Positions 10,261-56,686 of a stretch of 64,000 nucleotides of DNA are shown here, in pieces. Position numbers and translations under genes: made by a program. Each line of letters begins with the position of its first letter. The first letter of the stretch is position 1. The notes beneath the pieces are model-generated. The model searched no databases. It was not told the origin of the DNA and was given only the letters and a program-made list of their open reading frames with translations. Source of the stretch: Escherichia coli (GTDB lineage: Bacteria; Pseudomonadota; Gammaproteobacteria; Enterobacterales; Enterobacteriaceae); the NCBI RefSeq assembly GCF_048403405.1, contig NZ_CP183129.1. The stretch is one strand, 5' to 3'.

Positions 10261-10932
10261 ATGCAGTACCCGATTAACGAGATGTTCCAGACCCTGCAAG
10301 GTGAGGGTTACTTTACCGGCGTCCCCGCCATTTTTATTCGTTTACAGGGATGCCCGGTTGGCTGTGCCTGGTGCGACACCAAACACACCTGGGAAAAGCT
10401 TGAGGATCGGGAAGTCTCCCTTTTCAGCATTCTGGCGAAGACCAAAGAGAGTGATAAGTGGGGGGCGGCGAGCAGTGAAGACTTGCTGGCTGTCATTGGT
10501 CGCCAGGGATACACCGCGCGGCATGTGGTGATTACGGGTGGTGAGCCTTGCATTCATGATTTGCTGCCACTGACTGACCTGCTCGAAAAGAACGGTTTTA
10601 GCTGCCAGATCGAAACCAGTGGTACTCATGAAGTACGCTGCACACCGAATACCTGGGTTACCGTATCGCCAAAGCTGAACATGCGCGGCGGCTATGAAGT
10701 GTTGTCACAGGCACTGGAGCGAGCCAACGAAATCAAGCATCCAGTGGGACGCGTGCGTGATATTGAAGCACTGGATGAACTACTGGCAACACTGACCGAT
10801 GATAAACCGCGAGTCATTGCGCTGCAGCCGATTAGCCAAAAGGAAGATGCTACTCGTTTATGTATCGATACGTGCATTGCGCGCAACTGGCGTTTGTCGA
10901 TGCAAACACATAAATATTTAAATATTGCCTGA
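10261..10932 (+). CDS. queE: 7-carboxy-7-deazaguanine synthase QueE (radical SAM)
   Basis: 223-aa ORF MQYPINEMFQTLQGEGYFTGVPAIFIRLQGCPVGCAWCDTKH with radical-SAM Cys motif. Confidence 0.92.
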   Translation: MQYPINEMFQTLQGEGYFTGVPAIFIRLQGCPVGCAWCDTKHTWEKLEDREVSLFSILAKTKESDKWGAASSEDLLAVIGRQGYTARHVVITGGEPCIHDLLPLTDLLEKNGFSCQIETSGTHEVRCTPNTWVTVSPKLNMRGGYEVLSQALERANEIKHPVGRVRDIEALDELLATLTDDKPRVIALQPISQKEDATRLCIDTCIARNWRLSMQTHKYLNIA

Positions 10933-11169
10933 TTAAACATTTATAAGCGTTATAAATGGGTGGAACCTGTAAAGACTTCTACTCATTTATATTCTTTGTC
11001 GCCTCTAAAAAACCTCCATTTTGCCCATCCTGGACTAATCATTATCATTTTCTACAAATTCTGTGGTGTTAATTTTTCGTTGGAGTGAAAATTATTGCGG
11101 TGAAATTTGGTAGATTTTAGTTTGAATAGAGTTATTTTAAATATTTATCTTTTTAATCAATGGATTAAA

Positions 11170-11270
11170 TGCTCTTTAACATAATGGATGTGTTGTTTGT
11201 GTGATCCTGTAAAGTTGGTAGATTGTGACTGGCTTAAAAAATCATTAATTAATAATAGGTTATGTTTAGA
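11170..11270 (+). promoter_or_regulatory. CRISPR leader (AT-rich) of the queE-proximal array
   Basis: AT-rich sequence directly upstream of repeat 1; contains GTTGGTAGATTGT (about 11214-11226) 57 nt before the first repeat, the same motif and spacing as upstream of the cas2-proximal array. Confidence 0.7.
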
Positions 11271-12031
11271 GTGTTCCCCGCGCCAGCGGGGATAAACCGC
11301 GTTCAGCGTTGCTGGGCTGCGCAATGGACTGGTGTTCCCCGCGCCAGCGGGGATAAACCGCGGAGTTTTCACGGAACGCACAGCGAATTATGGTGTTCCC
11401 CGCGCCAGCGGGGATAAACCGCCGATAAATTTTCGCCCCGTTTCCAGCGCCGCGTGTTCCCCGCGCCAGCGGGGATAAACCGTTCAAACTGTAGGGATCG
11501 GCAATGGTGCCGAAGTGTTCCCCGCGCCAGCGGGGATAAACCGGGGCATTAGAATAACTTAAATGGAAAAAGAAAGTGTTCCCCGCGCCAGCGGGGATAA
11601 ACCGTCAGCCAGCACATAATTTTTATAGTCAGTATTGTGTTCCCCGCGCCAGCGGGGATAAACCGAAAGAGGTTATCGAGCGATATAACGCGTCCATGTG
11701 TTCCCCGCGCCAGCGGGGATAAACCGGTGCCTGGCGTCCATCTATTCACATGCCGCGCGTGTTCCCCGCGCCAGCGGGGATAAACCGTATTGGCGACGAT
11801 GGCATACCAGGACTACTCCGTGTTCCCCGCGCCAGCGGGGATAAACCGGCTCAGCGTCTGCTCTGGTGCCTCGCCCGTGAGTGTTCCCCGCGCCAGCGGG
11901 GATAAACCGGACCGTTACGGGCGCGTTCTTGGACTTGTTGAGTGTTCCCCACATCAGCGGGGATAAACCGGACACAGAGCGCCGCTATAGCGCCTATGCC
12001 AAGAGTTTCCCGCACCAGCGGGAATAAACCA
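11271..12031 (+). CRISPR. CRISPR array (CRISPR2.1-like): 13 repeats, 12 spacers of 32 nt
   Basis: 29-nt repeat GTGTTCCCCGCGCCAGCGGGGATAAACCG at 61-nt period starting 11271, 11332, 11393 ... 12003; repeat 12 degenerate (CCCCACATCAGCGGGG), terminal repeat 13 degenerate (GAGTTTCCCGCACCAGCGGGAATAAACCA). Frame anchored on ORF-track entries that translate repeats as RFIPAGAGNT/GLSPLARGT. Confidence 0.97.
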
Positions 12032-12485
12032 CCATATAACCCGTTATCTCTTTCTCAAGTTTTTATATTAGCTGTACTTGTAATAAGCAACATATCCACG
12101 TAACACCTCATGTTCAAAATAGTTCTCCATGTCAGAGAAGTTCACAATTATCGATACAAAAAATTAAATTTAATCAAAGTGTTATTTGTATGATTCTTAA
12201 ATCGTTAAGAAATTTTAATCTATTATTTTTTTAATATTGAATTAATGCCTGTTAATTTTTTCTTTAGAATAACAGTGTGTTTTTTAAGCTTGTTATTCAT
12301 TGATTAAGTAATAAATCTGGAAGTTTGTCTTTGTTTTGAGGCTAATGAGTGGTTTTACATAACCGTCTCTATAGGCTGTTGATGAATAGTTCTTATGAAT
12401 AAAGATATCCAGTTCATACTTTAAATGAAAATTGATAAAGTACGGTTTGCGTTGTCTTTTATTCTAAAGACATCGAGTGTAGTTA

Positions 12486-12624
12486 ATATTCCTTGTAAAA
12501 ACAGGGATAAACCGAACTAGTTAAAGTTTTTATTATGTTCCCTGCATCAGCGGGGATAAACCGGACTTGTTATCATTTTTTAAGTTGTCGAACTTATGTT
12601 CCCCACGTCAGCGGGGATAACCAT
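12486..12624 (+). CRISPR. Degenerate CRISPR remnant (CRISPR2.2-3-like), about 3 decayed repeat units
   Basis: Repeat-like units ending ACAGGGATAAACCG (12501-12514), ATGTTCCCTGCATCAGCGGGGATAAACCG (12535-12563) and ATGTTCCCCACGTCAGCGGGGATAACCA (12596-12623), separated from the main array by about 450 bp of AT-rich DNA. Confidence 0.7.
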
Positions 12625-12669
12625 TCAGGTATGTTCAGGCCGGGCAGTTTCCCGCCCGGTCTTCCTCAC

Positions 12670-14148
12670 TTACGCATTCGACCAGCTCTGGATCGAATCC
12701 GCATTCCCCAATTCCCCATGCATCACTTCATACGATTTTTTCAGGATTACATCAGTATGTTTGGTTAACTCCTTGAAAATGCCTTTATTCATCGCGTTGT
12801 AGCGTTTGGCGTTGCTCTCAACAGGCATAAAGATATCTTTCACGCGAACCATTTTGTCGACAGCCGTTGCGTAATCCGGGTATAGCCCCAGACCTACCGC
12901 CGTATTAATCGCTGCCCCCAGGCTTGCACAACCATTAATGGCGTTACGGCGTGCCGGAAGGTTGAACACGTCGGCAAAAATCTGCATAAACAGATCGCTG
13001 TTCGAACCGCCGCCAGTAATGATCACATGCTTTGCAAAGTGATTCATTTCATTACACATATTGTCGTAATTGTTCTTCAGCGTCAGCGCCACGCTTTCCA
13101 GTATCGAACGATATATCCATGCGTAATCCATGCTGGAATCAAAGCCAATCATAATCCCGCGTTTGTACGGTTCCCACGGATTGGTCAGCCAGTCCAGCAC
13201 CGTCATCAGACCATTACAGCCTGGCGGCACACAAGACGCTTTTTTGTTGAGCAAATCTTCCGGTGAAAGATCCTGTGCTTTGGCATCCTGAATTAACGAC
13301 TCGCCTAACATGTCGCGTAGCCAGCTCACCGTCCACATGCCTTTGCGAATACCGTAACCTTCATACAGCAAGGTTTGCGGAATAGAAGACATAATCGGCC
13401 AGTACGCTACCGGATCTTTCGGTAGTAATTTGCCGTTCATCATCAACGCGATGTAAGTGCCAAGAGAAATTACCGCAGTTTCATCATCCAGTAACCCGGC
13501 TCCCAGTGCTTCTACCGGTTTATCACTGGTGGTACAAACAACCGGCAGCCCAGCCGGGAAATGTGTCGCCAGCGCGGCTTGAGGAGTGATATGCCCAAGA
13601 ACAGTGCCCGGCATTTGCACATCAAACAGCATATGACGGGGGATATTAAACTTCTCCATGACTGCGGCATCTTCACTCCATGCCCAGGTCTTATAATCCA
13701 CCGGCCACTGACCAAAATAGTTGGCGATATTGTCTTTAAACTCGCCGGTTAAGCGATGCGTCAGATAACCCGAAAAAGAGGTGACATATGCCACGTCAGG
13801 ATTCGTATGTTCGTAAGGGCGTGTAACGCGTGCATCCTGCCAGCTAATCAACGGCGCAGCTGGCGTGCCATCGGCTTTCAATAACGCACGGCAGCAACGG
13901 ATGGATCCCAGACCAATACCGACAATATCTTCTTTATTTCCGGCAAACTGACTCATCAAATCGTGACCGGCAAAGCATAATGATGCCCATAAATCGTCGT
14001 CAGGATGTTCTGCGGTATCGGCATCTGGCGTGTGCATCGGCTGCAATAAGCCTTTGCCTTCGCAAACCACATTACCTTCCAGATCGTACATCACCACTTT
14101 TGTGCTCTGACTTCCACCATCAATCCCTATGATGTATTTTTTCGACAT
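12670..14148 (-). CDS. ygcE: FGGY-family carbohydrate kinase YgcE
   Basis: 492-aa ORF MSKKYIIGIDGGSQSTKVVMYDLEG... typical of FGGY sugar kinase N-terminus. Confidence 0.9.
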   Translation of the reverse strand: MSKKYIIGIDGGSQSTKVVMYDLEGNVVCEGKGLLQPMHTPDADTAEHPDDDLWASLCFAGHDLMSQFAGNKEDIVGIGLGSIRCCRALLKADGTPAAPLISWQDARVTRPYEHTNPDVAYVTSFSGYLTHRLTGEFKDNIANYFGQWPVDYKTWAWSEDAAVMEKFNIPRHMLFDVQMPGTVLGHITPQAALATHFPAGLPVVCTTSDKPVEALGAGLLDDETAVISLGTYIALMMNGKLLPKDPVAYWPIMSSIPQTLLYEGYGIRKGMWTVSWLRDMLGESLIQDAKAQDLSPEDLLNKKASCVPPGCNGLMTVLDWLTNPWEPYKRGIMIGFDSSMDYAWIYRSILESVALTLKNNYDNMCNEMNHFAKHVIITGGGSNSDLFMQIFADVFNLPARRNAINGCASLGAAINTAVGLGLYPDYATAVDKMVRVKDIFMPVESNAKRYNAMNKGIFKELTKHTDVILKKSYEVMHGELGNADSIQSWSNA

Positions 14149-29115: not shown

Positions 29116-31773
29116 GTGACTTTCTTTGATTTCTGGGGAAAAACCCGACGTGGCGAGAAAGAGGGTGGTGACGACTATCACCTTCTTTGCTGGCATTCGC
29201 TGGATGTAGCCGCGATGGGCTATTTAATGGTTAAAAGCAATTGCTTCGGGCTGGCTGACTATTTTCGTCAACTAGGTTTCGCTGATACGGAGCAGGCAGC
29301 ACAATTTTTCGCCTGGTTGCTGTGCTGGCACGATACTGGAAAATTTGCCCGCTCTTTTCAGCAACTTTACCTGCACCCGCAACTCAAGGTTCCGGAAAGC
29401 TCTAGAAAAAATTACGAAAAAATCTCTCATTCAACGCTGGGTTACTGGTTGTGGCACCATTATTTAAGTGAATGCGAAGAATTGCTTCCTTCATCTTCAC
29501 TCTCTCCGCGCAAACTTAAACGGGTGATAGAGATGTGGATGCCCATGACTACCGGGCATCATGGTCGCCCGCCTGACCGTATGGATGAACTGGATAATTT
29601 TCTGCCTGAAGACAAAGCCGCCGCGCGAGATTTTCTCCTTGTAATCAAGGCACTGTTTCCTCTCATCGAGATCCCCGCATTCTGGGATGATGACGATGGC
29701 GTTGAACTTTTAAAACAACTTTCCTGGTATATCTCTGCAACTGTCGTACTTGCAGACTGGACGGGATCGTCAACGCGATTTTTTCCACGCGTCGCGCAGG
29801 CAATGGATATTGAAGATTACTGGCAGAAGGCTTTAGTTCAGGCTCAAAACGCATTAACCGTCTTTCCTCCAAAAGCACAAACCGCGCCTTTCACCGGAAT
29901 TAATACGCTGTTTCCTTTTATTGAGCACCCGACACCGTTACAGCAAAAGGTGCTGGATCTGGATATCAGCCAGCCTGGGCCACAGTTATTTATTCTGGAG
30001 GATGTGACTGGCGCAGGTAAAACAGAAGCGGCGCTTATCCTGGCCCACAGGTTGATGGCTGCGGGGAAAGCACAGGGTTTGTTTTTTGGCCTGCCAACAA
30101 TGGCAACGGCCAATGCCATGTACGATCGGCTGGTAAAAACCTGGCTTGCTTTCTATTCGCCAGAATCCCGCCCCAGCCTGGTGCTGGCACACAGTGCCCG
30201 CACATTAATGGACCGCTTTAATGAATCACTCTGGTCCGGTGATTTAGTCGGGTCAGAAGAACCGGATGAACAAGCGTTCAGTCAGGGATGTGCGGCCTGG
30301 TTTGCCGACAGTAACAAGAAGGCGTTGCTGGCTGAAATTGGCGTCGGCACGCTGGATCAGGCGATGATGGCGGTGATGCCGTTTAAACATAATAATCTGC
30401 GGCTTCTGGGACTGAGTAACAAAATCCTGCTGGCTGATGAGATCCATGCCTGTGACGCTTACATGTCGTGCATTCTTGAAGGATTGATTGAGCGGCAGGC
30501 GCGTGGCGGAAACAGCGTTATTTTGCTTTCTGCCACGTTATCTCAACAGCAGCGCGACAAACTCGTTGCTGCCTTTGCGCGTGGTGCAGAGGGTCAGCAA
30601 GAAGCTCCGTTCCTGGAAAAGGATGATTACCCCTGGCTGACGCACGTTACGAAATCGGATGTGCATTCACACCGGGTAGCAACGCGCAAAGACGTTGAGC
30701 GTAGCGTGAGCGTGGGTTGGCTTCATAGCGAACAAGAGTGTATTGCGCGTATCGAATCGGCGGTAAGTCAGGGGAAATGCATCGCCTGGATCCGGAATTC
30801 TGTCGATGATGCTATTAAAGTTCATCGTCAGTTGCTTGCCCGCGGCGTCATTCCTGCTTCCAGCCTTTCTCTGTTTCATAGCCGCTTTGCTTTTAGCGAT
30901 CGCCAGCGAATTGAAACGGAAACGCTGGCACGCTTCGGTAAAGAAGATAGCTCACAGCGTGCCGGAAAAGTCCTCATTTGTACTCAGGTCTTAGAGTCGA
31001 GCGTTGATTGCGATATGGACGAAATGATTTCCGACCTGGCCCCTGTTGATTTGCTGATCCAGCGAGCGGGGCGATTACAGCGGCATATCCGCGATATTAA
31101 TGGTCAGTTAAAGCGTGACGGAAAAGACGAGCGTTCTCCTCCTGAATTGCTGATTCTGGCCCCCGTCTGGGACGACGCTCCAGGTGACGAATGGTTCGGC
31201 AGTGCCATGCGTAACAGTGCATATGTCTATCCCGATCATGGACGAATCTGGCTGACGCAGCGTGTACTGCGTGAGCAAGGCGCGATTCAAATGCCACACG
31301 CAGCCCGCCTTCTTATTGAATCAGTCTACGGTGAGGACGTGGTAATGCCGGAAGGATTTGCCCGCAGCGAGCAGGAACAAGTGGGCAAATATTACTGCGA
31401 TCGCGCAATGGCTAAAAAGTTTGTGCTGAACTTCAGGCCCGGCTATGCCGCCAATATCAACGATTACCTCCCGGAAAAGCTGTCGACACGTCTGGCTGAG
31501 GAGTCTGTTTCCCTGTGGCTGGCTACCTGTATTGACGGTGTGGTGAAGCCTTATGCCACCGGTGCTCACGCATGGGAAATGAGCGTTGTCAGAGTGCGTC
31601 GAAGCTGGTGGAAAAAACATTGCGATGAGTTTTCTTTACTGGAAGGGGAAGCGTTCAGGCAGTGGTGCGTTGAACAGCGGCAAGATCCGGAGATGGCAAA
31701 TGTGATTTTAGTTACCGATGACGAAAGTTGCGGGTATTCGGCTAGGGAGGGATTGATTGGTAAGGTTGATTGA
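29116..31773 (+). CDS. cas3: Cas3 HD nuclease/helicase (type I-E)
   Basis: 885-aa ORF, GTG start; HD motif (WHDTGK), Walker A (GAGKTEAA) and DEIHA helicase motif. Confidence 0.93.
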   Translation: MTFFDFWGKTRRGEKEGGDDYHLLCWHSLDVAAMGYLMVKSNCFGLADYFRQLGFADTEQAAQFFAWLLCWHDTGKFARSFQQLYLHPQLKVPESSRKNYEKISHSTLGYWLWHHYLSECEELLPSSSLSPRKLKRVIEMWMPMTTGHHGRPPDRMDELDNFLPEDKAAARDFLLVIKALFPLIEIPAFWDDDDGVELLKQLSWYISATVVLADWTGSSTRFFPRVAQAMDIEDYWQKALVQAQNALTVFPPKAQTAPFTGINTLFPFIEHPTPLQQKVLDLDISQPGPQLFILEDVTGAGKTEAALILAHRLMAAGKAQGLFFGLPTMATANAMYDRLVKTWLAFYSPESRPSLVLAHSARTLMDRFNESLWSGDLVGSEEPDEQAFSQGCAAWFADSNKKALLAEIGVGTLDQAMMAVMPFKHNNLRLLGLSNKILLADEIHACDAYMSCILEGLIERQARGGNSVILLSATLSQQQRDKLVAAFARGAEGQQEAPFLEKDDYPWLTHVTKSDVHSHRVATRKDVERSVSVGWLHSEQECIARIESAVSQGKCIAWIRNSVDDAIKVHRQLLARGVIPASSLSLFHSRFAFSDRQRIETETLARFGKEDSSQRAGKVLICTQVLESSVDCDMDEMISDLAPVDLLIQRAGRLQRHIRDINGQLKRDGKDERSPPELLILAPVWDDAPGDEWFGSAMRNSAYVYPDHGRIWLTQRVLREQGAIQMPHAARLLIESVYGEDVVMPEGFARSEQEQVGKYYCDRAMAKKFVLNFRPGYAANINDYLPEKLSTRLAEESVSLWLATCIDGVVKPYATGAHAWEMSVVRVRRSWWKKHCDEFSLLEGEAFRQWCVEQRQDPEMANVILVTDDESCGYSAREGLIGKVD

Positions 31774-31798
31774 GATGCCCTGGAGTCGGAGGACTCCA

Positions 31799-31889
31799 GG
31801 GCCTATCCCCGCTGACGCGGGGAACGGAATAACAGAGTAACAGGAGCTACCTCTTACTGCTGGTTTATCCCTACGTTAATAGGGAAGAA
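31799..31889 (-). repeat. Two degenerate CRISPR-repeat-like units in inverted orientation in the cas3-cse1 intergenic region
   Basis: 31799-31827 GGGCCTATCCCCGCTGACGCGGGGAACGG matches the reverse complement of the repeat at 23/29 positions; 31861-31889 TGGTTTATCCCTACGTTAATAGGGAAGAA matches at 17/29 and keeps a CCCTA/TAGGG stem; start-to-start spacing 62 nt. Confidence 0.6.
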
Positions 31890-32238
31890 GGGAGTATAGC
31901 ATCTACTGAGATGAATTTGTTTTGATATTTAATGTGAACTTCCTCTTACTGCCTTTACATTTTTCTATGCGAGGAGTAATCTTTGCTCAGTTTGGGAGAG
32001 TTGAGTTTTTTTTACCCAAATATAGGCTCTGGATACAGGACTGATTGGTTATTCCAGAGTATGAGAATTATGTAAGAGGGTTGTACCATGGAAGAAAAGA
32101 CCTCCCGCTGTAAACGACTGTTTTGTCGACTAATGGTTCGTTTTGGTAAAAGGTTGTCAGTTAGTTTTCAGTTATCGGTTAACTAAAGGTTTAAGGGATG
32201 ACAAATGCCATGGAAGGTGATTTTAATAAGGAATAGTT

Positions 32239-33801
32239 ATGTACCCTACTAGTTTAATTACTTCCCCGTGGTTGCCTGTTCGTTTCAAAGACGGAACGAC
32301 AGGCAAGCTGGCGCCAGTCGATCTGGCTGATGAAAATGTTGTCGATATCGCTGCGCCTCGGGCAGATCTCCAGGGGGCGGCATGGCAGTTTTTGCTGGGA
32401 CTATTACAAACCAGCTTCGCGCCAAAAGATCAACGTCGTTGGGATGACATCTGGGAAGACGGACTGGAAGCTGAAAAGCTACGGGAAGCATTGCTGTCAT
32501 TAGACCATGCTTTCCAGTTCGGGCCAGATTCACCTTCATTTATGCAGGATTTTGAGGCGCTCACGGGAGATAAAGTTCCGGTCGCTTCGCTACTGCCTGA
32601 GATTCCCGGCGTTCAAACAACAAAGTTTAATAAAGACCACTTTATCAAGCGTGGTGTAACGGAACACCTGTGCCCACAGTGTTCTGCACTAGCCTTGTTC
32701 TCTCTACAGTTAAATGCACCGTCAGGCGGCAAAGGCTATCGCACCGGTTTACGCGGCGGTGGGCCGATGACGACTCTCATTGAATTACAGGAATATCAGG
32801 GCAATCAACAAACACCCTTGTGGCGCAAACTGTGGCTCAACGTGATGCCGCAGGATGAAGCCGACTTACCGCTACCCAAAAAATTTGACGATCTGATTTT
32901 CCCCTGGCTAGGCCCGACGCGTACCAGCGAACTGGCCGGTGCGGTGGTAACCCATGATCAGGTCAATAAACTCCAGGCGTACTGGGGAATGCCGCGGCGT
33001 ATACGTATTGATTTTAATACCACGACAGTCGGCAACTGCGATATTTGCGACGAGCAGAACGACGCGCTCCTGAGCCTGATGACGACCAAAAATTACGGTG
33101 CCAATTATGCCATGTGGCAGCATCCCTTAACGCCTTACCGTGTACCACTTAAAGAGGGTGGCGAGTTTTACTCCGTTAAACCACAACCGGGCGGTTTAAT
33201 CTGGCGCGACTGGTTAGGCCTTATCGAAACGGGTAAATCAGAAAACAATACGGAACTTCCCGCGCTGGTGGTGAAACTCTTTAATGCCAGCAGTCTGAAA
33301 CAGGCAAAAGTGGGCCTATGGGGATTTGGTTATGATTTTGACAACATGAAAGCGCGCTGTTGGTACGAACACCATTTCCCGCTACTGCTCAATAAAAAAG
33401 AAGGCCAGATACCGAAGCTGCGGCTGGCTGCGCAAACGGCTTCACGGATTCTGAGTCTGTTACGGAGTGCATTGAAAGAAGCATGGTTCTCCGATCCAAA
33501 AGGTGCAAGGGGTGATTTCAGTTTTGTGGATATCGACTTCTGGAACAAAACTCAGCATCGCTTCCTGAGGTTAGTGCGCCAAATTGAAGAAGGTCAGGAT
33601 GCGGATGAATTACTCGGCAAATGGCAAAAGGAAATTTGGTTATTCGCGCGTCAGGATTTTGACGAGCGTGTATTCACTAATCCTTATGAGCCCGTTGATT
33701 TGAAACGCGTCATGACCGCGCGCAAGAAATATTTTACAACATCGGCGGAGAAGCAAAGTGCTAAAGCCGCCAGGGAGAAAAAGCAGGAGGCTGCTGAATG
33801 A
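32239..33801 (+). CDS. casA: Cse1 / CasA, large subunit of Cascade (type I-E)
   Basis: 520-aa ORF first in the Cascade operon; divergent from the K-12 CasA sequence as I recall it. Confidence 0.85.
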   Translation: MYPTSLITSPWLPVRFKDGTTGKLAPVDLADENVVDIAAPRADLQGAAWQFLLGLLQTSFAPKDQRRWDDIWEDGLEAEKLREALLSLDHAFQFGPDSPSFMQDFEALTGDKVPVASLLPEIPGVQTTKFNKDHFIKRGVTEHLCPQCSALALFSLQLNAPSGGKGYRTGLRGGGPMTTLIELQEYQGNQQTPLWRKLWLNVMPQDEADLPLPKKFDDLIFPWLGPTRTSELAGAVVTHDQVNKLQAYWGMPRRIRIDFNTTTVGNCDICDEQNDALLSLMTTKNYGANYAMWQHPLTPYRVPLKEGGEFYSVKPQPGGLIWRDWLGLIETGKSENNTELPALVVKLFNASSLKQAKVGLWGFGYDFDNMKARCWYEHHFPLLLNKKEGQIPKLRLAAQTASRILSLLRSALKEAWFSDPKGARGDFSFVDIDFWNKTQHRFLRLVRQIEEGQDADELLGKWQKEIWLFARQDFDERVFTNPYEPVDLKRVMTARKKYFTTSAEKQSAKAAREKKQEAAE

Positions 33802-34334
33802 GTATTGTAAAAGAGGAGCACAAAGCCACGCTGCGTAAATGGCACGAAGAGTTGCAGGAAAAACGCGGCAATCGTGCCAGTCTGCGGCGTAGCACAACGG
33901 TTAATGATGTTTGTCTGTCAGAAGGGTTTCGTTCTCTGCTGATGCAGACCCACACGTTGTGGAAAATTGAATCACAGGAGTGGCGTTTTACCGCACTGGC
34001 ACTGGTTGCCGCCGTTGCCGCCAATGTAAAAGCCATTGATGAACGGCAGCCTTTTGCCGCGCAGTTGGCGGCGGTAATGTCTGAGGGGCGTTTTACTCGC
34101 CTGTCGGCAGTCAAAACGCCGGATGAATTACTGCGCCAGTTACGTCGCGCGGTCAAATTATTAAATGGTTCCGTCAATCTTATCTCTTTGGCAGACGATA
34201 TTTTCCGCTGGTGCCAGGAGAGCGACGATCTGCTCAATCATCACCGCCGCCAGCAGCGGCCAACAGAATTTATCCGTATCCGCTGGGCGCTGGAATATTA
34301 CCAGGCTGGCGACGCCGATAACGAACAAAATTAA
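33798..34334 (+). CDS. casB: Cse2 / CasB, small subunit of Cascade
   Basis: 178-aa ORF overlapping the casA stop by 4 nt. Confidence 0.85.
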   Translation: MSIVKEEHKATLRKWHEELQEKRGNRASLRRSTTVNDVCLSEGFRSLLMQTHTLWKIESQEWRFTALALVAAVAANVKAIDERQPFAAQLAAVMSEGRFTRLSAVKTPDELLRQLRRAVKLLNGSVNLISLADDIFRWCQESDDLLNHHRRQQRPTEFIRIRWALEYYQAGDADNEQN

Positions 34335-34348
34335 TAAAGGACTATCTC

Positions 34349-35404
34349 ATGACGACATTTATTCAGCTTCATTTGTTAACCGCTTACCCTGCTGCCAACC
34401 TTAACCGTGATGACACCGGTGCGCCAAAAACTGTGGTACTGGGTGGAGCAACGCGTCTGCGCGTTTCCTCACAAAGTCTGAAACGTGCGTGGCGCACTTC
34501 TGCACTTTTTGAACAGGCACTGGCGGGCCATATTGGTATTCGCAGTGGGCGTATTGCGCGTGAGGCGGCAACTATCCTGATTGAGAAAGGCATCGAAGAG
34601 AAAAAAGCCATCGAATGGGCGGCAAAAATTGCGGATTATCTTGGGAAAGCTAAAAACGACAAAAAACCAAAAGATCCGCTCACTAACGCCGAAACTGAAC
34701 AGCTAGTCCATATCAGCCCGGCAGAATTTGACGCCGTAAAAGCGCTGGCCCATCAACTGGCCGAAGAAAAGCGCGCGCCAAAAGAGGAAGATCTCGCTTT
34801 GTTACGTAAAGATCGCATGGCGGTAGATATCGCTATGTTTGGTCGTATGCTGGCGAATAAACCCGAATTTAATGTTGAAGCCGCCTGCCAGGTCGCGCAT
34901 GCATTTGGTGTCAGTGAAACGATTGTCGAAGATGATTTTTTCACCGCCGTTGATGATTTGCGCCAGGCTTCTGAAGATGCCGGTGCCGGGCATCTCGGAG
35001 AAACCGGATTCGGTTCAGCACTTTTCTACACCTATATCTGCATTGATAAAGATCTGCTGGTCGAAAACCTCGGCGGTGACGAAGCGTTAGCTAATCAGAC
35101 CATACGCGCCTTTACGGAAGCTGCGCTTAAAGTCTCCCCCACCGGTAAACAAAACAGTTTTGCCAGCCGTGCCTACGCCTCCTGGGCGCTGGCAGAAAAA
35201 GGCACCGAACAACCGCGTTCTCTGGCGGCGGCTTTCTATGAACCCATTAATGGCACCCGTCAGTTAGATGTGGCGGTGCAGCGTATTACAACGCTTCGCG
35301 AAAATATGAATACGGTCTACGAACAGAAGACCGAATGCACAAGTTTTGACGTGATGAACAAACAGGGAAGCATGAAGGACGTGCTGGACTTTATCTGCGC
35401 GTAA
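34349..35404 (+). CDS. casC: Cas7e / CasC, Cascade backbone subunit
   Basis: 351-aa ORF MTTFIQLHLLTAYPAANLNRDDTGAPKTVVLGGATRLRVSSQSLKRAWR, same N-terminal pattern as E. coli CasC. Confidence 0.92.
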   Translation: MTTFIQLHLLTAYPAANLNRDDTGAPKTVVLGGATRLRVSSQSLKRAWRTSALFEQALAGHIGIRSGRIAREAATILIEKGIEEKKAIEWAAKIADYLGKAKNDKKPKDPLTNAETEQLVHISPAEFDAVKALAHQLAEEKRAPKEEDLALLRKDRMAVDIAMFGRMLANKPEFNVEAACQVAHAFGVSETIVEDDFFTAVDDLRQASEDAGAGHLGETGFGSALFYTYICIDKDLLVENLGGDEALANQTIRAFTEAALKVSPTGKQNSFASRAYASWALAEKGTEQPRSLAAAFYEPINGTRQLDVAVQRITTLRENMNTVYEQKTECTSFDVMNKQGSMKDVLDFICA

Positions 35405-35414
35405 GGGGCGGCTT

Positions 35415-36161
35415 ATGAGCCAATATCTGATTTTTCAGCTTCATGGGCCGATGGCATCCTGGGGCGTCGATGCCCCCGGTGAAGTGCGTCATACCCATGA
35501 ACTGCCTTCGCGCTCAGCATTGCTGGGGCTGCTGGCTGCCGGGGTAGGGATTCGGCGTGATGATACCGAACGCTTAAACGCGTTTAATCGCCACTATTCA
35601 CTGGTGGTTTGCGCCAGCCGTAACCCGCGCTGGGCACGGGATTATCACACGGTCCAGATGCCAAAAGAGGTGCGTAAAGCGCGTTATTTCAGCCGTCGCG
35701 AAGAGTTGAGCGACCCTGATCTTCTGAGCGCGATTATCTCCCGGCGCGACTACTACACCGATGCCTGGTGGATGGTGGCGGTGGCAACAACAGCCGATGC
35801 GCCTTACAGCCTCGAACAGTTGCAGGAAGGTTTACGCCATCCGGTTTTTCCGCTTTATCTGGGGAGAAAAAGTCATCCGCTGGCGTTACCACTTGCGCCG
35901 TTACTGCTCGAAGGCAACGCGTCTGATGTCTTACGTAACGCATACCAACAGTATCAGGATCGTTTCCACGAACTGAAAGTCTCACTCCCGAAACTTCAGG
36001 ATGAATGCTGGTGGGAAGGGGAGCACGATGGCCTGGTCGCGAGCAAAATATTACGCCGCCGGGATGTTCCTTTAAATCGTCAGCAGTGGCTGTTTGGGGA
36101 ACGCACCGTCAATCAGGGGCCGTGGCTCAGCAAGGAGAAACCATGTACCTCTCAAGAATAA
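35415..36161 (+). CDS. casD: Cas5e / CasD
   Basis: 248-aa ORF MSQYLIFQLHGPMASWG..., Cas5 N-terminal signature. Confidence 0.9.
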   Translation: MSQYLIFQLHGPMASWGVDAPGEVRHTHELPSRSALLGLLAAGVGIRRDDTERLNAFNRHYSLVVCASRNPRWARDYHTVQMPKEVRKARYFSRREELSDPDLLSAIISRRDYYTDAWWMVAVATTADAPYSLEQLQEGLRHPVFPLYLGRKSHPLALPLAPLLLEGNASDVLRNAYQQYQDRFHELKVSLPKLQDECWWEGEHDGLVASKILRRRDVPLNRQQWLFGERTVNQGPWLSKEKPCTSQE

Positions 36162-36789
36162 CCTTACATACCGGCCAGCTTTCGCCTGCGCAGTTGCTGC
36201 ATCTGGTGGATCGCGGTGAATATGTGATGCATCAGTGGCTGTGGGATCTTTTCCCCGGCGGCAAAGAAAGGCAATTTCTTTATCGTCGGGAAGAACTCCA
36301 GGGGGCGTTTCGCTTTTTTGTCCTGTCGCAGGAACGCCCGGCGGAAAGTGATATTTTCACCATCGAATGCCGACCATTTGCGCCAGAGTTGCGTACCGGA
36401 CAATCCCTTTGTTTCAACCTGCAGGCGAATCCAACAATTTGTAAAGCGGGCAAACGCCACGACTTGCTGATGGAGGCGAAACGGCAGGTGAGGGGGCAGG
36501 TGGAAGGAAGTGATGTCTGGTTGCATCAACAACAGGCTGCGCTGGACTGGCTGGCAGCGCAGGGGGAGAGAAGCGGTTTTACACTGCTGGATACTTCGGT
36601 TGATGCCTACCGACAACAGCAACTGCGGCGGGAAAACTCCCGGCAACTGATCCAGTTCAGTAGCGTGGATTATACGGGGATGCTTACGGTCACCGATCCT
36701 AGGTTATTTCTGCAACGTCTCAGTCAGGGGTATGGCAAAAGCCGGGCGTTCGGTTGTGGTCTGATGCTGATCAAACCCGGAGCAGAGGC

Positions 36790-36793
<4 letters not shown>
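36143..36793 (+). CDS. casE: Cas6e / CasE, crRNA-processing endoribonuclease
   Basis: Internal ATG at 36143 with AAGGAG RBS gives MYLSRITLHTG...; C-terminal G-rich loop GCGLMLIKP; overlaps casD end. Confidence 0.9.
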
Positions 36794-38003
<1,210 letters not shown>

Positions 38004-38099
38004 GTTATCCGTTCTTTAAAAATAAGGAAATGTTTGAATTTAGTTGGTAGATTGTTGATGTGAAATAAAGTTGTTTAAAAACAGATATGTATGCTTAGT
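38004..38099 (+). promoter_or_regulatory. CRISPR leader of the cas2-proximal array
   Basis: AT-rich 96 bp between cas2 and repeat 1; GTTGGTAGATTGT at about 38044-38056, 57 nt before the first repeat. Confidence 0.75.
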
Positions 38100-38496
38100 G
38101 TGTTCCCCGCGCCAGCGGGGATAAACCGAATACGCAACAGTGTTTTTATTGACAACACCGGTGTTCCCCGCGCCAGCGGGGATAAACCGGCAACGCCAGT
38201 AAATCAGACCAACGGCGCTGGGTGTTCCCCGCGCCAGCGGGGATAAACCGCGTTGTTTTGCCGGGTCGGGTGAATATATCGTAGTGTTCCCCGCGCCAGC
38301 GGGGATAAACCGGCCAGATTTCCAGTTCACTGGTCTTCGCGGCAAGTGTTCCCCGCGCCAGCGGGGATAAACCGAATGAGAGCTGACAGGTGTATGTCAT
38401 CAGTACGTGTTCCCCGCACCAGCGGGGATAAACCGTAATATTAGACTAATGTTTTTTTGTTGAGTTCGTGTTCCCCGCGCCAGCGGGGAACTCCCA
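38100..38496 (+). CRISPR. CRISPR array (CRISPR I, cas-adjacent): 7 repeats, 6 spacers (32-33 nt)
   Basis: Repeat GTGTTCCCCGCGCCAGCGGGGATAAACCG at 38100, 38161, 38222, 38284, 38346, 38407 (one G-to-A change) and a truncated terminal repeat at 38468 (GTGTTCCCCGCGCCAGCGGGGAACTCCCA). Confidence 0.97.
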
Positions 38497-38515
38497 GCTC
38501 TCATTTTCAAACCCA

Positions 38516-39553
38516 TCAAGACGCCTTCGCCAGCTCCTTCACCAGCGGTAGCATTATCCGCATAACGTCACGGCAGCGACGTTCTATTCTTCCAGGAAGT
38601 GCCTTATCAATATGTTGTTGATTATCCAGTCTTACGTCATGCCAGCTATTTCCCGCAGGGAATGCAGCTGTTTTTGCGCGTTGCTGATAACCATCCTTAT
38701 TCCCAAGATTCCAATTTGTTGCTTCTACCGAAAGTACGGCAATACCGGCTTTGTCGAAAACTTCGGCATCATTACAACAGCCAGTACCCTTCGGATAATT
38801 TTTATTCAAACCCGGATTGGTCGTTGCGGCAATTCCATGACTACGCGCAATTGCCAGCGCCCTGTCGCGCGTTAATTTCCTTACTGCTTCAGGGGTTTTT
38901 ACACCGCTGTTGAAATACAATTTATCGCCAACAATTAAGTTATCGAGATTAATCACCAGCAGCGTATTTTTCTTTTCGGTGTCACTCATCCGCTTGAGTA
39001 AATTCTCAGCGCCTAATTTCCCTTCCTCTTCGCCGCTGGTCGCCACAAATCGAATACCATACTCGGTAGGCGTATTTTTCAGGCGTTCTGCCAGTTCCAG
39101 CATGACACCTAAACCTGCAGCGTTATCATCCATTCCTTGTAACGTCAGTCCGCCGAGATTGGCATCGGCGTCAGCATCGCTCAGCGGGGCGTAAGTATCC
39201 AGATGCGCCATAATGATGATCTGCTGCGGCGCTTTGCCTTCATGAGCGGCAATCACCGTACTTCCCGTCACGTTATGCCAGCTCTTGCGATTATCGCGGG
39301 CGGTATAAATATACCGACTATTAAATGTCCGAATATCACTGCGATAACCCATTTGCTGAAACTGTTGGCGAATATAATCGGCAGATAACATTTCTGCAGG
39401 AGTTCCGGTCATGCGTCCCGGAAAGAAAGTAGCAATATGTCGTGCCTGGGTATTAGCAAAATCGCCAGGTTTAGGTGACGAGGCGTGTACGGGGAGAATA
39501 AAGCATACGCCGAGCGCCAGGGCAGCGGTACGGTGGCGCAATGCGGAAAACAT
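38516..39553 (-). CDS. iap: Alkaline phosphatase isozyme conversion aminopeptidase Iap
   Basis: 345-aa secreted M28-family peptidase-like ORF directly flanking the array. Confidence 0.88.
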   Translation of the reverse strand: MFSALRHRTAALALGVCFILPVHASSPKPGDFANTQARHIATFFPGRMTGTPAEMLSADYIRQQFQQMGYRSDIRTFNSRYIYTARDNRKSWHNVTGSTVIAAHEGKAPQQIIIMAHLDTYAPLSDADADANLGGLTLQGMDDNAAGLGVMLELAERLKNTPTEYGIRFVATSGEEEGKLGAENLLKRMSDTEKKNTLLVINLDNLIVGDKLYFNSGVKTPEAVRKLTRDRALAIARSHGIAATTNPGLNKNYPKGTGCCNDAEVFDKAGIAVLSVEATNWNLGNKDGYQQRAKTAAFPAGNSWHDVRLDNQQHIDKALPGRIERRCRDVMRIMLPLVKELAKAS

Positions 39554-47380: not shown

Positions 47381-48520
47381 ATGAGCGCGGGAAGCCCAAA
47401 ATTCACCGTTCGCCGCATTGCGGCTTTGTCACTGGTTTCGCTATGGCTGGCAGGCTGTTCTGACACTTCAAATCCACCGGCACCGGTCAGCTCCGTTAAT
47501 GGCAATGCGCCTGCAAATACCAATTCTGGTATGTTGATTACGCCGCCGCCGAAAATGGGAACGACGTCTACAGCGCAGCAACCGCAAATTCAGCCGGTAC
47601 AGCAGCCACAAATTCAGGCTACTCAACAACCGCAAATCCAGCCAGTACAGCCAGTAGCTCAGCAGCCGGTACAGATGGAAAACGGACGCATCGTCTACAA
47701 CCGTCAGTATGGGAACATTCCGAAAGGCAGTTATAGCGGCAGTACCTATACCGTGAAAAAAGGCGACACACTTTTCTATATCGCCTGGATTACTGGCAAC
47801 GATTTCCGTGACCTTGCTCAGCGCAACAATATTCAGGCACCATACGCGCTGAACGTCGGTCAGACCTTACAGGTGGGTAATGCTTCCGGTACGCCAATCA
47901 CTGGCGGAAATGCCATTACCCAGGCCGACGCAGCAGAGCAAGGAGTTGTGATCAAGCCTGCACAAAATTCCACCGTTGCTGTTGCGTCGCAACCGACAAT
48001 TACGTATTCTGAGTCTTCGGGTGAACAGAGTGCTAACAAAATGTTGCCGAACAACAAGCCAACTGCGACCACGGTCACAGCGCCTGTAACGGTACCAACA
48101 GCAAGCACAACCGAGCCGACTGTCAGCAGTACATCAACCAGTACGCCTATCTCCACCTGGCGCTGGCCGACTGAGGGCAAAGTGATCGAAACCTTTGGCG
48201 CTTCTGAGGGGGGCAACAAGGGGATTGATATCGCAGGCAGCAAAGGACAGGCAATTATCGCGACCGCAGATGGCCGCGTTGTTTATGCCGGTAACGCGCT
48301 GCGCGGCTACGGTAATCTGATTATCATCAAACATAATGATGATTACCTGAGTGCCTACGCCCATAACGACACAATGCTGGTCCGGGAACAACAAGAAGTG
48401 AAGGCGGGGCAAAAAATAGCAACCATGGGTAGCACCGGAACCAGTTCAACACGCTTGCATTTTGAAATTCGTTACAAGGGGAAATCCGTAAACCCGCTGC
48501 GTTATTTGCCGCAGCGATAA
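47381..48520 (+). CDS. nlpD: Murein hydrolase activator lipoprotein NlpD (LysM + M23-like)
   Basis: 379-aa ORF with lipobox LAGC, Q/P-rich repeats, LysM and C-terminal M23-like domain. Confidence 0.94.
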
Positions 48521-55427: not shown

Positions 55428-56686
55428 GATAAAAACTCTCTTTGGGCTCGTGAAAAAAAGGCTTCATCACCGAAGTTGCCAGATTTAAGGGCGAGTGAGA
55501 CAGGTTTATCCAGTGCGTTTACCCACGGCACGCCGGGAGAAATGGTTGGGCCAATATGAAACCCTTTTATTCCCAGGCTCTGTGTGACTACGCCGGAGGT
55601 CTCACCGCCTGCGACAATAAAGCGTGTCACGCCTTCCGCTGCTAACCGCGCCGCTAGTTGAGAAAACAGTGTTTCTACTGCCTGACTGGCTTTATGTGCA
55701 CCGTATTGCTGTTGAATTGCTGCCAATGCGTCAGTGCTGGCAGTGGCAAAAACCAGTGGAGCAAGTACACTTTCCTGGCCCAGAACCCACTCTGCCAGTT
55801 CGTGTGCATAAGCGGCCAGAGTTTCAATTGAGAGGCAGCGTGCCACATCAACTTCACGGGCTGGTGCAATTTGACGGTAATGTGCTACCTGGCAGTTGGT
55901 CATTTGAGAGCATGAACCGGAGAGCACTACGCCGCGCCCAGCGAGCGGATGCCCTGCTTTGCGAGCCTGGTTACCGTTTTCTTGCGCCCACTGCCGGGCA
56001 AGGCCAATCGCCAGACCAGAACCGCCCGTTACCAGTGGGGTATCGCGCAAGGCTTCTCCCTGAATTTCCAGATGGTGTTCGGTCAGCGCATCAAGCACCG
56101 CGTAGCGGTAGCCCTCTTGCTGTAAGCGAGCCAGCTCTTGACGAACGGCATCCACACCTTGTTCGAAAACATGTGCCGAAACGACGCCGCAGCGCCCTGT
56201 GGATTGCGCTTCAACCAGACGGGGAAGATAGCTGTCGGTCATGGGATTTACCGGGTGATGGCGCATCCCGGATTCGGCCAGCAGTTGATTCATTACGAAC
56301 AAATACCCCTGATAAACCGTACGTCCGTTGACCGGCAGGGCCGGAGAGAAGACCGTAAACGGCGTGTCGAGAGCATCCATTAATGCATCGGTAACCGGGC
56401 CGATATTACCTTTCGCCGAACTGTCGAAAGTAGAGCAGTATTTGAAATAGATCTGTTTGCAACCTTGCTGTTGCAACCAGCTCAGTGCCGCCAGCGATTG
56501 CTGTGTGGCTTCAACCACCGGACAGGAACGCGTTTTCAGGCTGATCACCAGTGCGTCGATTGCTTCCGGCATTTTACCTGTTGGAACACCGTTAATTTGT
56601 ACCGTTGGTAGACCGTTTTCCACCAGAAAACTGGCGATATCCGTCGCGCCGGTAAAATCATCGGCGATAACGCCAATCTTGATCAT
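55424..56686 (-). CDS. ygbK: Four-carbon acid-sugar kinase YgbK (OtnK, DUF1537 family)
   Basis: 420-aa ORF MIKIGVIADDFTGATDIASFL... Confidence 0.85.
   Translation of the reverse strand: MIKIGVIADDFTGATDIASFLVENGLPTVQINGVPTGKMPEAIDALVISLKTRSCPVVEATQQSLAALSWLQQQGCKQIYFKYCSTFDSSAKGNIGPVTDALMDALDTPFTVFSPALPVNGRTVYQGYLFVMNQLLAESGMRHHPVNPMTDSYLPRLVEAQSTGRCGVVSAHVFEQGVDAVRQELARLQQEGYRYAVLDALTEHHLEIQGEALRDTPLVTGGSGLAIGLARQWAQENGNQARKAGHPLAGRGVVLSGSCSQMTNCQVAHYRQIAPAREVDVARCLSIETLAAYAHELAEWVLGQESVLAPLVFATASTDALAAIQQQYGAHKASQAVETLFSQLAARLAAEGVTRFIVAGGETSGVVTQSLGIKGFHIGPTISPGVPWVNALDKPVSLALKSGNFGDEAFFSRAQREFLS

Follow-up and report, generated by a model that had tools for sequence, protein, structure and literature searches.

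In type I-E adaptation, each new spacer arrives with a copy of the leader-proximal repeat, and the endoribonuclease Cas6e cleaves every repeat after position 21, on the 3′ side of the hairpin's base. Divergence at the far ends of such arrays has been described on two scales: across 4,418 arrays, terminal I-E repeats carry 28.6 mutations per 1,000 nt versus 5.3 for internal repeats (Mitrofanov 2026, PMC12839519), and in E. coli a degenerate terminal 'anchor' repeat is known from CRISPR2.1 (Almendros 2014, PMC3903273, citing Diez-Villasenor 2010). In the published naming, CRISPR2.1 is the array on the iap side, and CRISPR2.2 and CRISPR2.3 lie between ygcE and queE/ygcF (PMC3903273).

We analysed the leader-distal repeats of two arrays within a 64,000-nt stretch of E. 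coli DNA, which we call the window. A sequence-only reading of this DNA had proposed that the distal repeats of both arrays carry related substitutions, chief among them a G-to-A change at repeat position 12 (G12A), and that these loop-proximal changes could alter Cas6e processing of the oldest spacers. We found a standard E. coli type I-E locus, in which the degeneracy of leader-distal repeats is an already known feature and not a new one. The three repeats that carry the change are most probably inherited relics at the leader-distal ends, rather than a coordinated or functional modification.

Two arrays in a standard type I-E locus

The ORF map and similarity searches assigned the window to the E. 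coli chromosome. Its plus-strand gene order runs queE (ORF 10261–10932), a 13-repeat array, a degenerate mini-array, ygcE (12670–14148, minus strand), cysJIH, the cas operon, a 7-repeat array and iap (minus strand). The type I-E cas operon (29116–38003, plus strand) is complete, with cas3, cse1, cse2, cas7, cas5, cas6e, cas1 and cas2. Each of the eight Cas ORFs exceeded the curated cut-off of one or more general type I-E or core Cas NCBIfam models, and Cas3 and Cse1 did not reach those of two other equivalog models for Cas3/Cse1 (PRK09694 and PRK09693). cas6e (36143–36793, plus strand, with an approximate start) matched TIGR01907 casE_Cse3 at 284 bits; the match covers profile positions 1–207 of 208 and begins at residue 47 of ORF 36005–36793. 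Cas1 and Cas2 have the lengths seen in TUM14771 and not those seen in DH5a; the model scores and these lengths suggest the I-E1 variant of PMC3903273.

We mapped repeats with a mismatch-tolerant pattern scan for the consensus GTGTTCCCCGCGCCAGCGGGGATAAACCG, which also sets the position numbers used throughout. Tandem Repeats Finder reported the cas-side array only in part and missed the queE-side array, because the spacers are unrelated to one another, and an Rfam search of 11000–12800 found no CRISPR repeat family, its single sub-threshold match being attributable to chance. A promoter and terminator scan around the queE-side array returned background-level, uninformative signals.

The queE-side array, CRISPR2.3 (11271–12031, plus strand), consists of 13 repeats and 12 spacers of 32 nt with a 61-nt period, and RefSeq annotates a CRISPR at the homologous queE–ygcE stretch of other E. 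coli genomes. Ahead of it, between the queE ORF and the first repeat, lies an intergenic region with the leader (10933–11270, plus strand), of which the last ~170 nt are AT-rich; the sequence upstream of the first repeat is the same in APEC O1. The cas-side array, CRISPR2.1 (38100–38496, plus strand), contains 7 repeats separated by 6 spacers, of which two are 33 nt long, with a 61–62-nt period, and its AT-rich leader (38004–38099, plus strand) extends from the cas2 stop to the first repeat. An identical cas-side array in TUM14771 is annotated there as a CRISPR between cas2e and iap. The leader role of both AT-rich stretches is taken from PMC3903273. According to the ORF map and the homologous RefSeq loci, both arrays occupy their standard E. 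coli places, cas2–array–iap and queE(ygcF)–array–ygcE, and they show the hallmarks of type I-E arrays: 29-nt repeats with unique 32–33-nt spacers, a repeat hairpin, an adjacent complete cas operon and the expected chromosomal place.

Because both arrays lie on the plus strand downstream of AT-rich leaders, the flagged repeats are leader-distal and the oldest in their arrays, and the repeat map bore out their distal placement at both loci. Repeats 1–11 of the queE-side array and the first five of the cas-side array match the consensus exactly, and variant repeats are confined to the last two of each array.

The mini-array, CRISPR2.2 (12535–12624, plus strand; named after PMC3903273), comprises two degenerate repeats around one 32-nt spacer. 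Repeat a (12535–12563, plus strand) carries G1A, C9T, G12A and C13T (GCATCA), and repeat b (12596–12624, plus strand) carries G1A, G10A, C13T and an altered 3′ end, with the loop region ACGTCA. The spacer and repeat a are present in every examined strain that keeps CRISPR2.2 as a separate element, one strain having C9A in place of C9T in repeat a. Considered as a regulatory guide, the CRISPR2.2 spacer gave only 8-nt seed matches within the window, a chance-level result.

Separately, a cas intergenic region holds two degenerate repeats around a spacer-sized sequence on the minus strand (31799–31891), a layout that fits CreR/cr-like elements: a repeat-like stretch (31891–31861), a 33-nt spacer (31860–31828) and a second, palindromic repeat-like stretch (31827–31799). 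The candidate spacer matches minus-strand positions 31920–31952 over 11 consecutive bases and at 15 of the first 17, with AAG in front. A partial seed match with a correct PAM upstream of an effector operon is the pattern described in PMC10120712 and bioRxiv 10.1101/2023.03.10.532045, and we regard 31799–31891 as a candidate for a putative CreR/cr-like regulatory mini-array. The minus-strand palindrome at 31799–31827 goes beyond the account given by the sequence-only reading, as do the CRISPR2.2 variants, the lost consensus of the last cas-side repeat and a C6T/G21A pair in the last queE-side repeat, the last two of which are described below.

Histories of the variant repeats

The penultimate queE-side repeat, R12 (11942–11970, plus strand; GTGTTCCCCACATCAGCGGGGATAAACCG), carries G10A, G12A and C13T, which give the loop region ACATCA and produce the 'CACATC' reported earlier, and the terminal repeat, R13 (12003–12031, plus strand; GAGTTTCCCGCACCAGCGGGAATAAACCA), carries T2A, C6T, G12A, G21A and G29A. 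On the cas side, the penultimate repeat R6 (38407–38435, plus strand) has G12A only, and the terminal repeat R7 (38468–38496, plus strand) is chimeric, with consensus positions 1–22 followed by an ACTCCCA tail. Our mismatch-tolerant scan recovered every base that had been reported in R12, R13 and R6. The queE-side array thus steps from no substitutions in repeats 1–11 to three in R12 and five in R13, and apart from T2A, a GTG/GAG polymorphism at position 2, all eight substitutions in R12, R13 and R6 are G-to-A or C-to-T. The sequence-only reading had allowed that the changes might be sequence-reading errors, but the same variant bases are found in complete genomes that were sequenced independently: R12 and R13 are identical in MS 69-1 and 4621, the cas-side array is identical in TUM14771, and exact R13 (as a 30-mer) is found in 9 of 5,426 genomes. 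Sequencing or assembly error is accordingly so improbable that we set it aside.

From the sequences and their distribution over genomes, we infer the following course of events. With only the first repeat being copied, at the leader end, distal repeats would never be renewed, and deletions between identical repeats would remove internal units while tending to spare the ends. Distal repeats would thereby keep old alleles and accumulate GC-to-AT transitions, and these changes would gather in the 4-nt loop and leave the Cas6e-bound 7-bp stem undisturbed, which would be why the G12A site recurs. R13 would have taken its G12A from a widespread haplotype and later acquired C6T and G21A, and R12 would be a leftover alternative allele (ACGTCA) that later acquired G12A.

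For R13, the comparison of terminal repeats is informative. G29A is present in every CRISPR2.3 terminal repeat examined; K-12 and BL21-derived strains have T2A and G29A only, and extra changes appear in O104:H4 (C11T), an O157-like strain (C17T) and DSM 101139 (A24G). The terminal repeat of E166 has T2A, G12A and G29A after a different last spacer. The GAG...GCACCA form occurs in 307 of 5,426 genomes and, in APEC O1 (B2), is the leader-proximal repeat of a fused CRISPR2.2-3. CFT073 has the form with C6T alone, a U–G wobble, and a route to the U–A pair of R13 through such a wobble is plausible from these sequences. At ≥99% match, the R12–S12–R13 block, which includes the last spacer S12, was found in 7 of the 5,426 complete genomes. 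Among the nine genomes with exact R13, O169:H41 has it after a different last spacer, and in VCSW7 the whole array is R1–S12–R13. Since it occurs with different spacers and in a one-spacer array, R13 is a conserved terminal repeat older than its upstream spacers, and the conservation independent of upstream spacers that characterizes an anchor repeat is seen in O169:H41 and VCSW7.

Such conservation raises the question of whether divergent distal repeats are selected as anchors, their low homology blocking deletion of the whole array while the hairpin is kept for the last crRNA. The anchor idea has been proposed for E. coli (PMC3903273) and terminal mutations have been tied to spacer retention (PMC12839519), and R13 has features that would suit an anchor: its longest run of identity to the consensus is 8 bases, it persists across arrays with different spacers, including the single-spacer array, and in the predicted fold its stem is maintained by a compensating pair. 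However, survivorship without selection gives the same pattern, R6 and R12 still share 16–17 consecutive bases with the consensus, and the cas-side array has itself lost the species-wide anchor spacer through the joining of a normal repeat to the anchor repeat, an event that anchors therefore fail to prevent. We consider selection for anchoring possible, though somewhat unlikely.

The product of that join is R7, in which the hairpin is that of the consensus and the consensus is lost beyond position 22. Its ACTCCCA tail is that of the species-wide degenerate iap-side repeat, as seen by comparison with K-12/DH5a, C288, W150 and strain 572, in each of which the cas-side array ends ...GGCGCACTGGATGCGATGATGGATATCACTTG-GAGTTCCCCGCCCCTGCGGTAGAACTCCCA. 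This tandem GGCGCACTGGATGCGATGATGGATATCACTTG-GAGTTCCCCGCCCCTGCGGTAGAACTCCCA array end has been described previously (PMC3903273).

R12 has a different background. TUM14771 has the same S11 and S12 spacers, and the repeat between them, GTGTTCCCCACGTCAGCGGGGATAAACCG, carries G10A and C13T and no G12A. The resulting ACGTCA allele is present in 122 of the 5,426 genomes at a median of 4 copies, and it has been copied through successive acquisitions, because the five leader-proximal repeats of E166 all carry it. To judge from these genomes, R12 is a relic of the circulating ACGTCA allele that recently gained G12A, and not a decayed consensus. We had also considered plain gradual decay of R12 from the consensus; ACGTCA at that position in TUM14771 rules it out.

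R6 has yet another background, and its spacer context is unrelated to that of R12 and R13. Its 29-mer (GTG...GCACCA...CCG) is found in 84 of the 5,426 genomes, including BL21; BL21 and other B strains carry it as the fourth of five CRISPR2.1 repeats, after an unrelated spacer; on this comparison, the G12A of R6 appears to be a separate single event. The substitutions of the two arrays are therefore only partly related. All three repeats have G12A, but their histories appear to differ: the G12A of R13 belongs to a terminal-repeat haplotype found in hundreds of genomes, that of R12 is a recent addition on the ACGTCA allele, and that of R6 sits among unrelated spacers.

Sister strains differ in their internal spacers. 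The window lacks the sequence beginning ACAGCATGAGCG..., which is present in MS 69-1, 4621 and TUM14771, and TUM14771 lacks the third spacer of the window, whereas the distal block is kept in all four. An intact distal block with varying internal spacers is consistent with loss of units between identical repeats, with the divergent end left in place.

Predicted hairpins as Cas6e substrates

We compared the predicted RNA folds of the consensus and variant repeats. The consensus is predicted to form a 7-bp stem (U5–A22 to C11–G16) with the loop G12-C13-C14-A15, followed by AUAAACCG, at −15.1 kcal/mol; seven pairs and a four-base loop are the published dimensions of the repeat hairpin (PMC5965381). 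The predicted minimum-energy fold was the canonical hairpin for every variant repeat, with a continuous seven-pair stem in R6 and R13 and six pairs plus an A–C mismatch in R12. G12A is the first base of the 4-nt loop (positions 12–15), and in R6 it changes the loop only, at a predicted −14.3 kcal/mol and hence a cost of 0.8 kcal/mol. R12 is predicted at −8.9 kcal/mol, with a 1×1 A–C mismatch caused by G10A.

R13, at a predicted −11.9 kcal/mol, retains all seven pairs, including U6–A21. Its C6T and G21A fall on the two partners of the bottom stem pair and compensate each other, turning C–G into U–A. In the R13 background, G21A alone is predicted at −7.4 kcal/mol with loss of the bottom pair, and C6T alone at −11.4 kcal/mol with the pair retained as a U–G wobble. 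The probability of obtaining such a compensating pair by chance is ~0.006–0.014, and the compensation suggests either that selection preserved the hairpin or that the palindrome templated its own correction.

At the cut site, G21 followed by A22 is present in R12, R6 and R7, and R13 has A21. Structural work on Cse3 reportedly found G21 at the cut site to be required. Because Cas6e cuts after position 21, two crRNAs are shaped by R12, that of S11 at its 3′ end and that of S12 at its 5′ end. R13 determines how the S12 crRNA ends on its 3′ side, and on the cas side R6 bears in the same way on the crRNAs of S5 (3′ end) and S6 (5′ end). Searches of phage and plasmid collections with these four distal spacers (S11 and S12 on the queE side, S5 and S6 on the cas side) returned no significant match. 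A single plasmid match to one of them, at 28 of 32 bases and E = 0.5, was taken as noise.

These features could be read as impaired binding or cleavage by Cas6e, such that S11, S12, S5 and S6 are under-produced as crRNAs and effectively retired. R12 has an A–C mismatch in the upper stem and a predicted loss of ~6 kcal/mol, R13 has A in place of G21, immediately 5′ of the cut site, and the lack of significant phage or plasmid matches to the four spacers would fit obsolete memory; moreover, a single nucleotide change in a repeat is stated, with reference to earlier work, to be able to abolish both Cas6e binding and cleavage (PMC11317134). Against impaired processing, the change common to the three repeats lies in the loop and is nearly neutral in the predicted fold, and G12A-type variants persist at internal positions of long Citrobacter and Klebsiella arrays. 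The ACGTCA allele, which has the same G10A mismatch, stayed leader-proximal through at least four acquisitions in E166 and is spread over the 122 genomes noted above. The second change in R13 restores a pair, although loss of function would lead one to expect the reverse, and the 3′ handle is mostly dispensable for Cascade loading in vitro (PMC4288178). We judge impaired processing an unlikely explanation.

G12A itself should be neutral for crRNA production, because it occupies a loop position, costs a predicted 0.8 kcal/mol and persists inside long arrays; the proposal that it alters Cas6e processing finds no support, given its place as the first loop base, this small cost and its internal and leader-proximal occurrences elsewhere. 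A literature search combining Cas6e with tetraloop found nothing. Should the stem changes in R12 and R13 have an effect, it would reach only the crRNAs of the two oldest queE-side spacers, and if R12 or R13 did block Cas6e, only these two spacers, neither with a known target, would be silenced. A processing effect would also be hard to see under standard conditions, because E. coli I-E expression is reported to be under H-NS and LeuO control (PMC5965381).

Recurrence of G12A and comparison with known arrays

G12A and its neighbours recur well beyond the window. In K-12 CRISPR2.1, repeat 11 has C13T and C14T and repeat 13 has G12A and C13T (GCATCA), and repeat 4 of BL21 CRISPR2.1 has G12A. A cross-species scan, with a single genome for each species, identified A12 variants in the reference genomes of six other species, some at internal positions: Erwinia mallotivora, Citrobacter sedlakii (consensus loop region GCGTCA), Mixta theicola, Serratia sp. 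DD3, Citrobacter portucalensis (repeat 25 of at least 33) and Klebsiella spallanzanii (repeat 11 of 16). We also tallied incidental variants that had not been searched for, leaving out the three repeats of the window, the position-2 GTG/GAG polymorphism and position 29. In this small sample, from loci picked by flank or repeat similarity and not at random, the loop positions hold 12 of 25 variants versus an expectation of 4 in 27 sites (P ~9e-5). Other loop alleles are propagated as well, O169:H41 having C14G in six leader-proximal repeats. Because of this excess and this propagation, the loop appears to be the most variable part of the repeat, with G12A a common outcome, and the bias may reflect weaker constraint on the loop or more rapid C-to-T change where the loop is exposed.

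In a stronger form of the latter idea, the loop would be a mutational hot spot whose cytosines deaminate faster when repeat DNA extrudes as a hairpin. G12A would then be a C-to-T change in the bottom-strand loop, C13T and C14T would be the same change in the top-strand loop, and C6T/G21A could come from templated correction in a quasi-palindrome rather than from selection. We find a hot spot of this kind doubtful. If it were real, CRISPR repeats would be a natural reporter of hairpin-driven mutagenesis, and terminal repeats would be under opposing pressures, retention of the Cas6e hairpin versus lost homology to their neighbours.

How surprising the shared change is depends on how common it is. 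If G12A makes up 8–20% of variants, a share taken from the incidental sample, and events are independent, the nominal chance of finding it in each of the three variant repeats is 0.005–0.06, a post hoc figure for events that are not equivalent, the G12A of R13 being old and that of R12 recent. This low nominal chance is one argument for the spread of G12A by short-patch gene conversion or recombination, from R13 or the GCATCA repeat of CRISPR2.2 into R12, or from array to array. R12 gained its A12 61 bp from the A12 of R13 and ~600 bp from the GCATCA repeat, it reads as a mosaic of both CRISPR2.2 repeats, and recombination within E. coli arrays is documented (PMC3903273; PMC4524480). Yet a conversion tract would have to copy position 12 without position 10 or 6 of the donor and so span only 1–5 nt, the flanking spacers have nothing in common, and G12A arises in many unrelated contexts and in species without such a donor. 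We consider spread by conversion quite improbable.

Several observations nonetheless sit uneasily with the interpretation of the variants as inherited relics. The jump from eleven perfect repeats to R12 with its three substitutions is unlike gradual decay, so that this interpretation requires R12 to be a relic allele that became joined to a younger block. The low chance of the C6T/G21A pair argues for constraint or templated mutation acting on the terminal repeat rather than free decay, and the low chance of three G12A changes may leave a small role for some dependence between the events, for example through short-patch conversion.

The variant repeats serve as reliable markers of lineage, R13 with the last spacer marking ~9 complete genomes, and they illustrate that a substitution common to two arrays need not imply a common function. 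They also amount to a small natural experiment on the tolerance of type I-E repeats, in which GCACCA, GCGTCA, GCGCGA and the mismatch allele ACGTCA all persist and the last three of these four have been seen copied through successive acquisitions. Tolerated alleles of this sort could guide the design of non-identical repeats for synthetic arrays.

Like known degenerate terminal repeats, the variants of the window are leader-distal, more divergent than internal repeats and conserved either with the oldest spacers or regardless of spacers. Unlike the published E. coli anchor (GAGTTCCCCGCCCCTGCGGTAGAACTCCCA, on the iap side and mostly lost here), R13 lies on the queE side and has an intact, compensated hairpin. 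The arrays share their loci, 29-nt repeat family, layout and distal loop variants with the type I-E arrays of K-12 and BL21, and differ from them in their spacers, in R12 and R13 sequences that are rare (about 7–9 of 5,426 genomes) and in a cas operon that is apparently the non-K-12 variant. As Cas6e substrates, all variant repeats retain, in the predicted folds, the stem-loop with AUAAACC after it, whereas R12 departs from the standard substrate by an internal A–C mismatch and R13 by a bottom U–A pair in place of C–G, with A instead of G before the cut site.

Variation within the queE-side array and CRISPR2.2

Variant repeats occur at the leader end of CRISPR2.3, the queE-side array, in other strains. 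In E. coli O169:H41 (L029 552-885), six leader-end repeats carry C14G (loop region GCGCGA; changes are numbered on the 29-nt consensus repeat, and the loop region spans positions 10-15), and five leader-end repeats of E. coli E166 (L007 514-786) carry G10A together with C13T (ACGTCA). Loop or stem alleles are being propagated at the leader end in these strains, and acquisition therefore copies variant repeats faithfully. Spacer content also differs among sister strains: an internal spacer of MS 69-1, 4621 and TUM14771, ACAGCATGAGCGTAATCAGTTGCGATTCCATC, is absent from the window at the repeat at 11637-11665 (region 11605-11697), and the third spacer of the window's array (11422-11453) is missing in TUM14771. 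Internal units of the queE-side array appear and disappear between perfect repeats, and the distal block, its oldest, leader-distal end, stays.

The CRISPR2.2 mini-array (12535-12624) has a 32-nt spacer that is identical in all examined E. coli carrying this mini-array as an element of its own. Its repeat a is likewise constant in those E. coli, with one strain having C9A instead of C9T, and its repeat b differs among strains (GCGTCA, ACGTCA or GCGCCA). No seed-plus-PAM target for the CRISPR2.2 spacer was found within the window.

The end of the cas-side array

The cas-side array, CRISPR2.1, ends in a chimeric terminal repeat (within 38468-38520) that joins consensus positions 1-22 to an ACTCCCA tail, the same tail as that of the species-wide degenerate iap-side repeat, or 'anchor'. 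The spacer GGCGCACTGGATGCGATGATGGATATCACTTG is absent from the window; among the strains compared, K-12 and all others outside this lineage keep it before the degenerate repeat. The chimeric end has the look of a join left by a deletion that ran from a normal repeat into the anchor repeat. Matches of at least 99% to this end occur in only 8 genomes. Two of the six spacers in this array (38251-38283 and 38313-38345) are 33 nt long instead of 32 nt.

Repeats outside the arrays

Tandem Repeats Finder returned two short tandem repeats of 24-nt period, at 47579-47643 (2.7 copies) and 56571-56617 (2.0 copies), which lie within apparent coding regions and bear no relation to the CRISPR loci.

The minus strand of the cas3-cse1 intergenic region (31799-31955) carries a degenerate mini-array that runs antisense to the cas genes. 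Its parts are a first repeat-like element (31891-31861) ending in ATAAACCA, a 33-nt spacer (31860-31828) and, at 31827-31799, another repeat-like element, which keeps an intact hairpin and has the loop region GCGTCA. A site at 31952-31920, ~290 bp upstream of cse1 and preceded by AAG, the type I-E PAM, matches the spacer at its first 11 bases and at 15 of its first 17. The mini-array and the partly matching site fit the published pattern of autoregulation by CreR or cr-like RNAs (PMC10120712; bioRxiv 10.1101/2023.03.10.532045). Experimental demonstration of that pattern concerns Salmonella I-E; for E. coli I-E it is a prediction.
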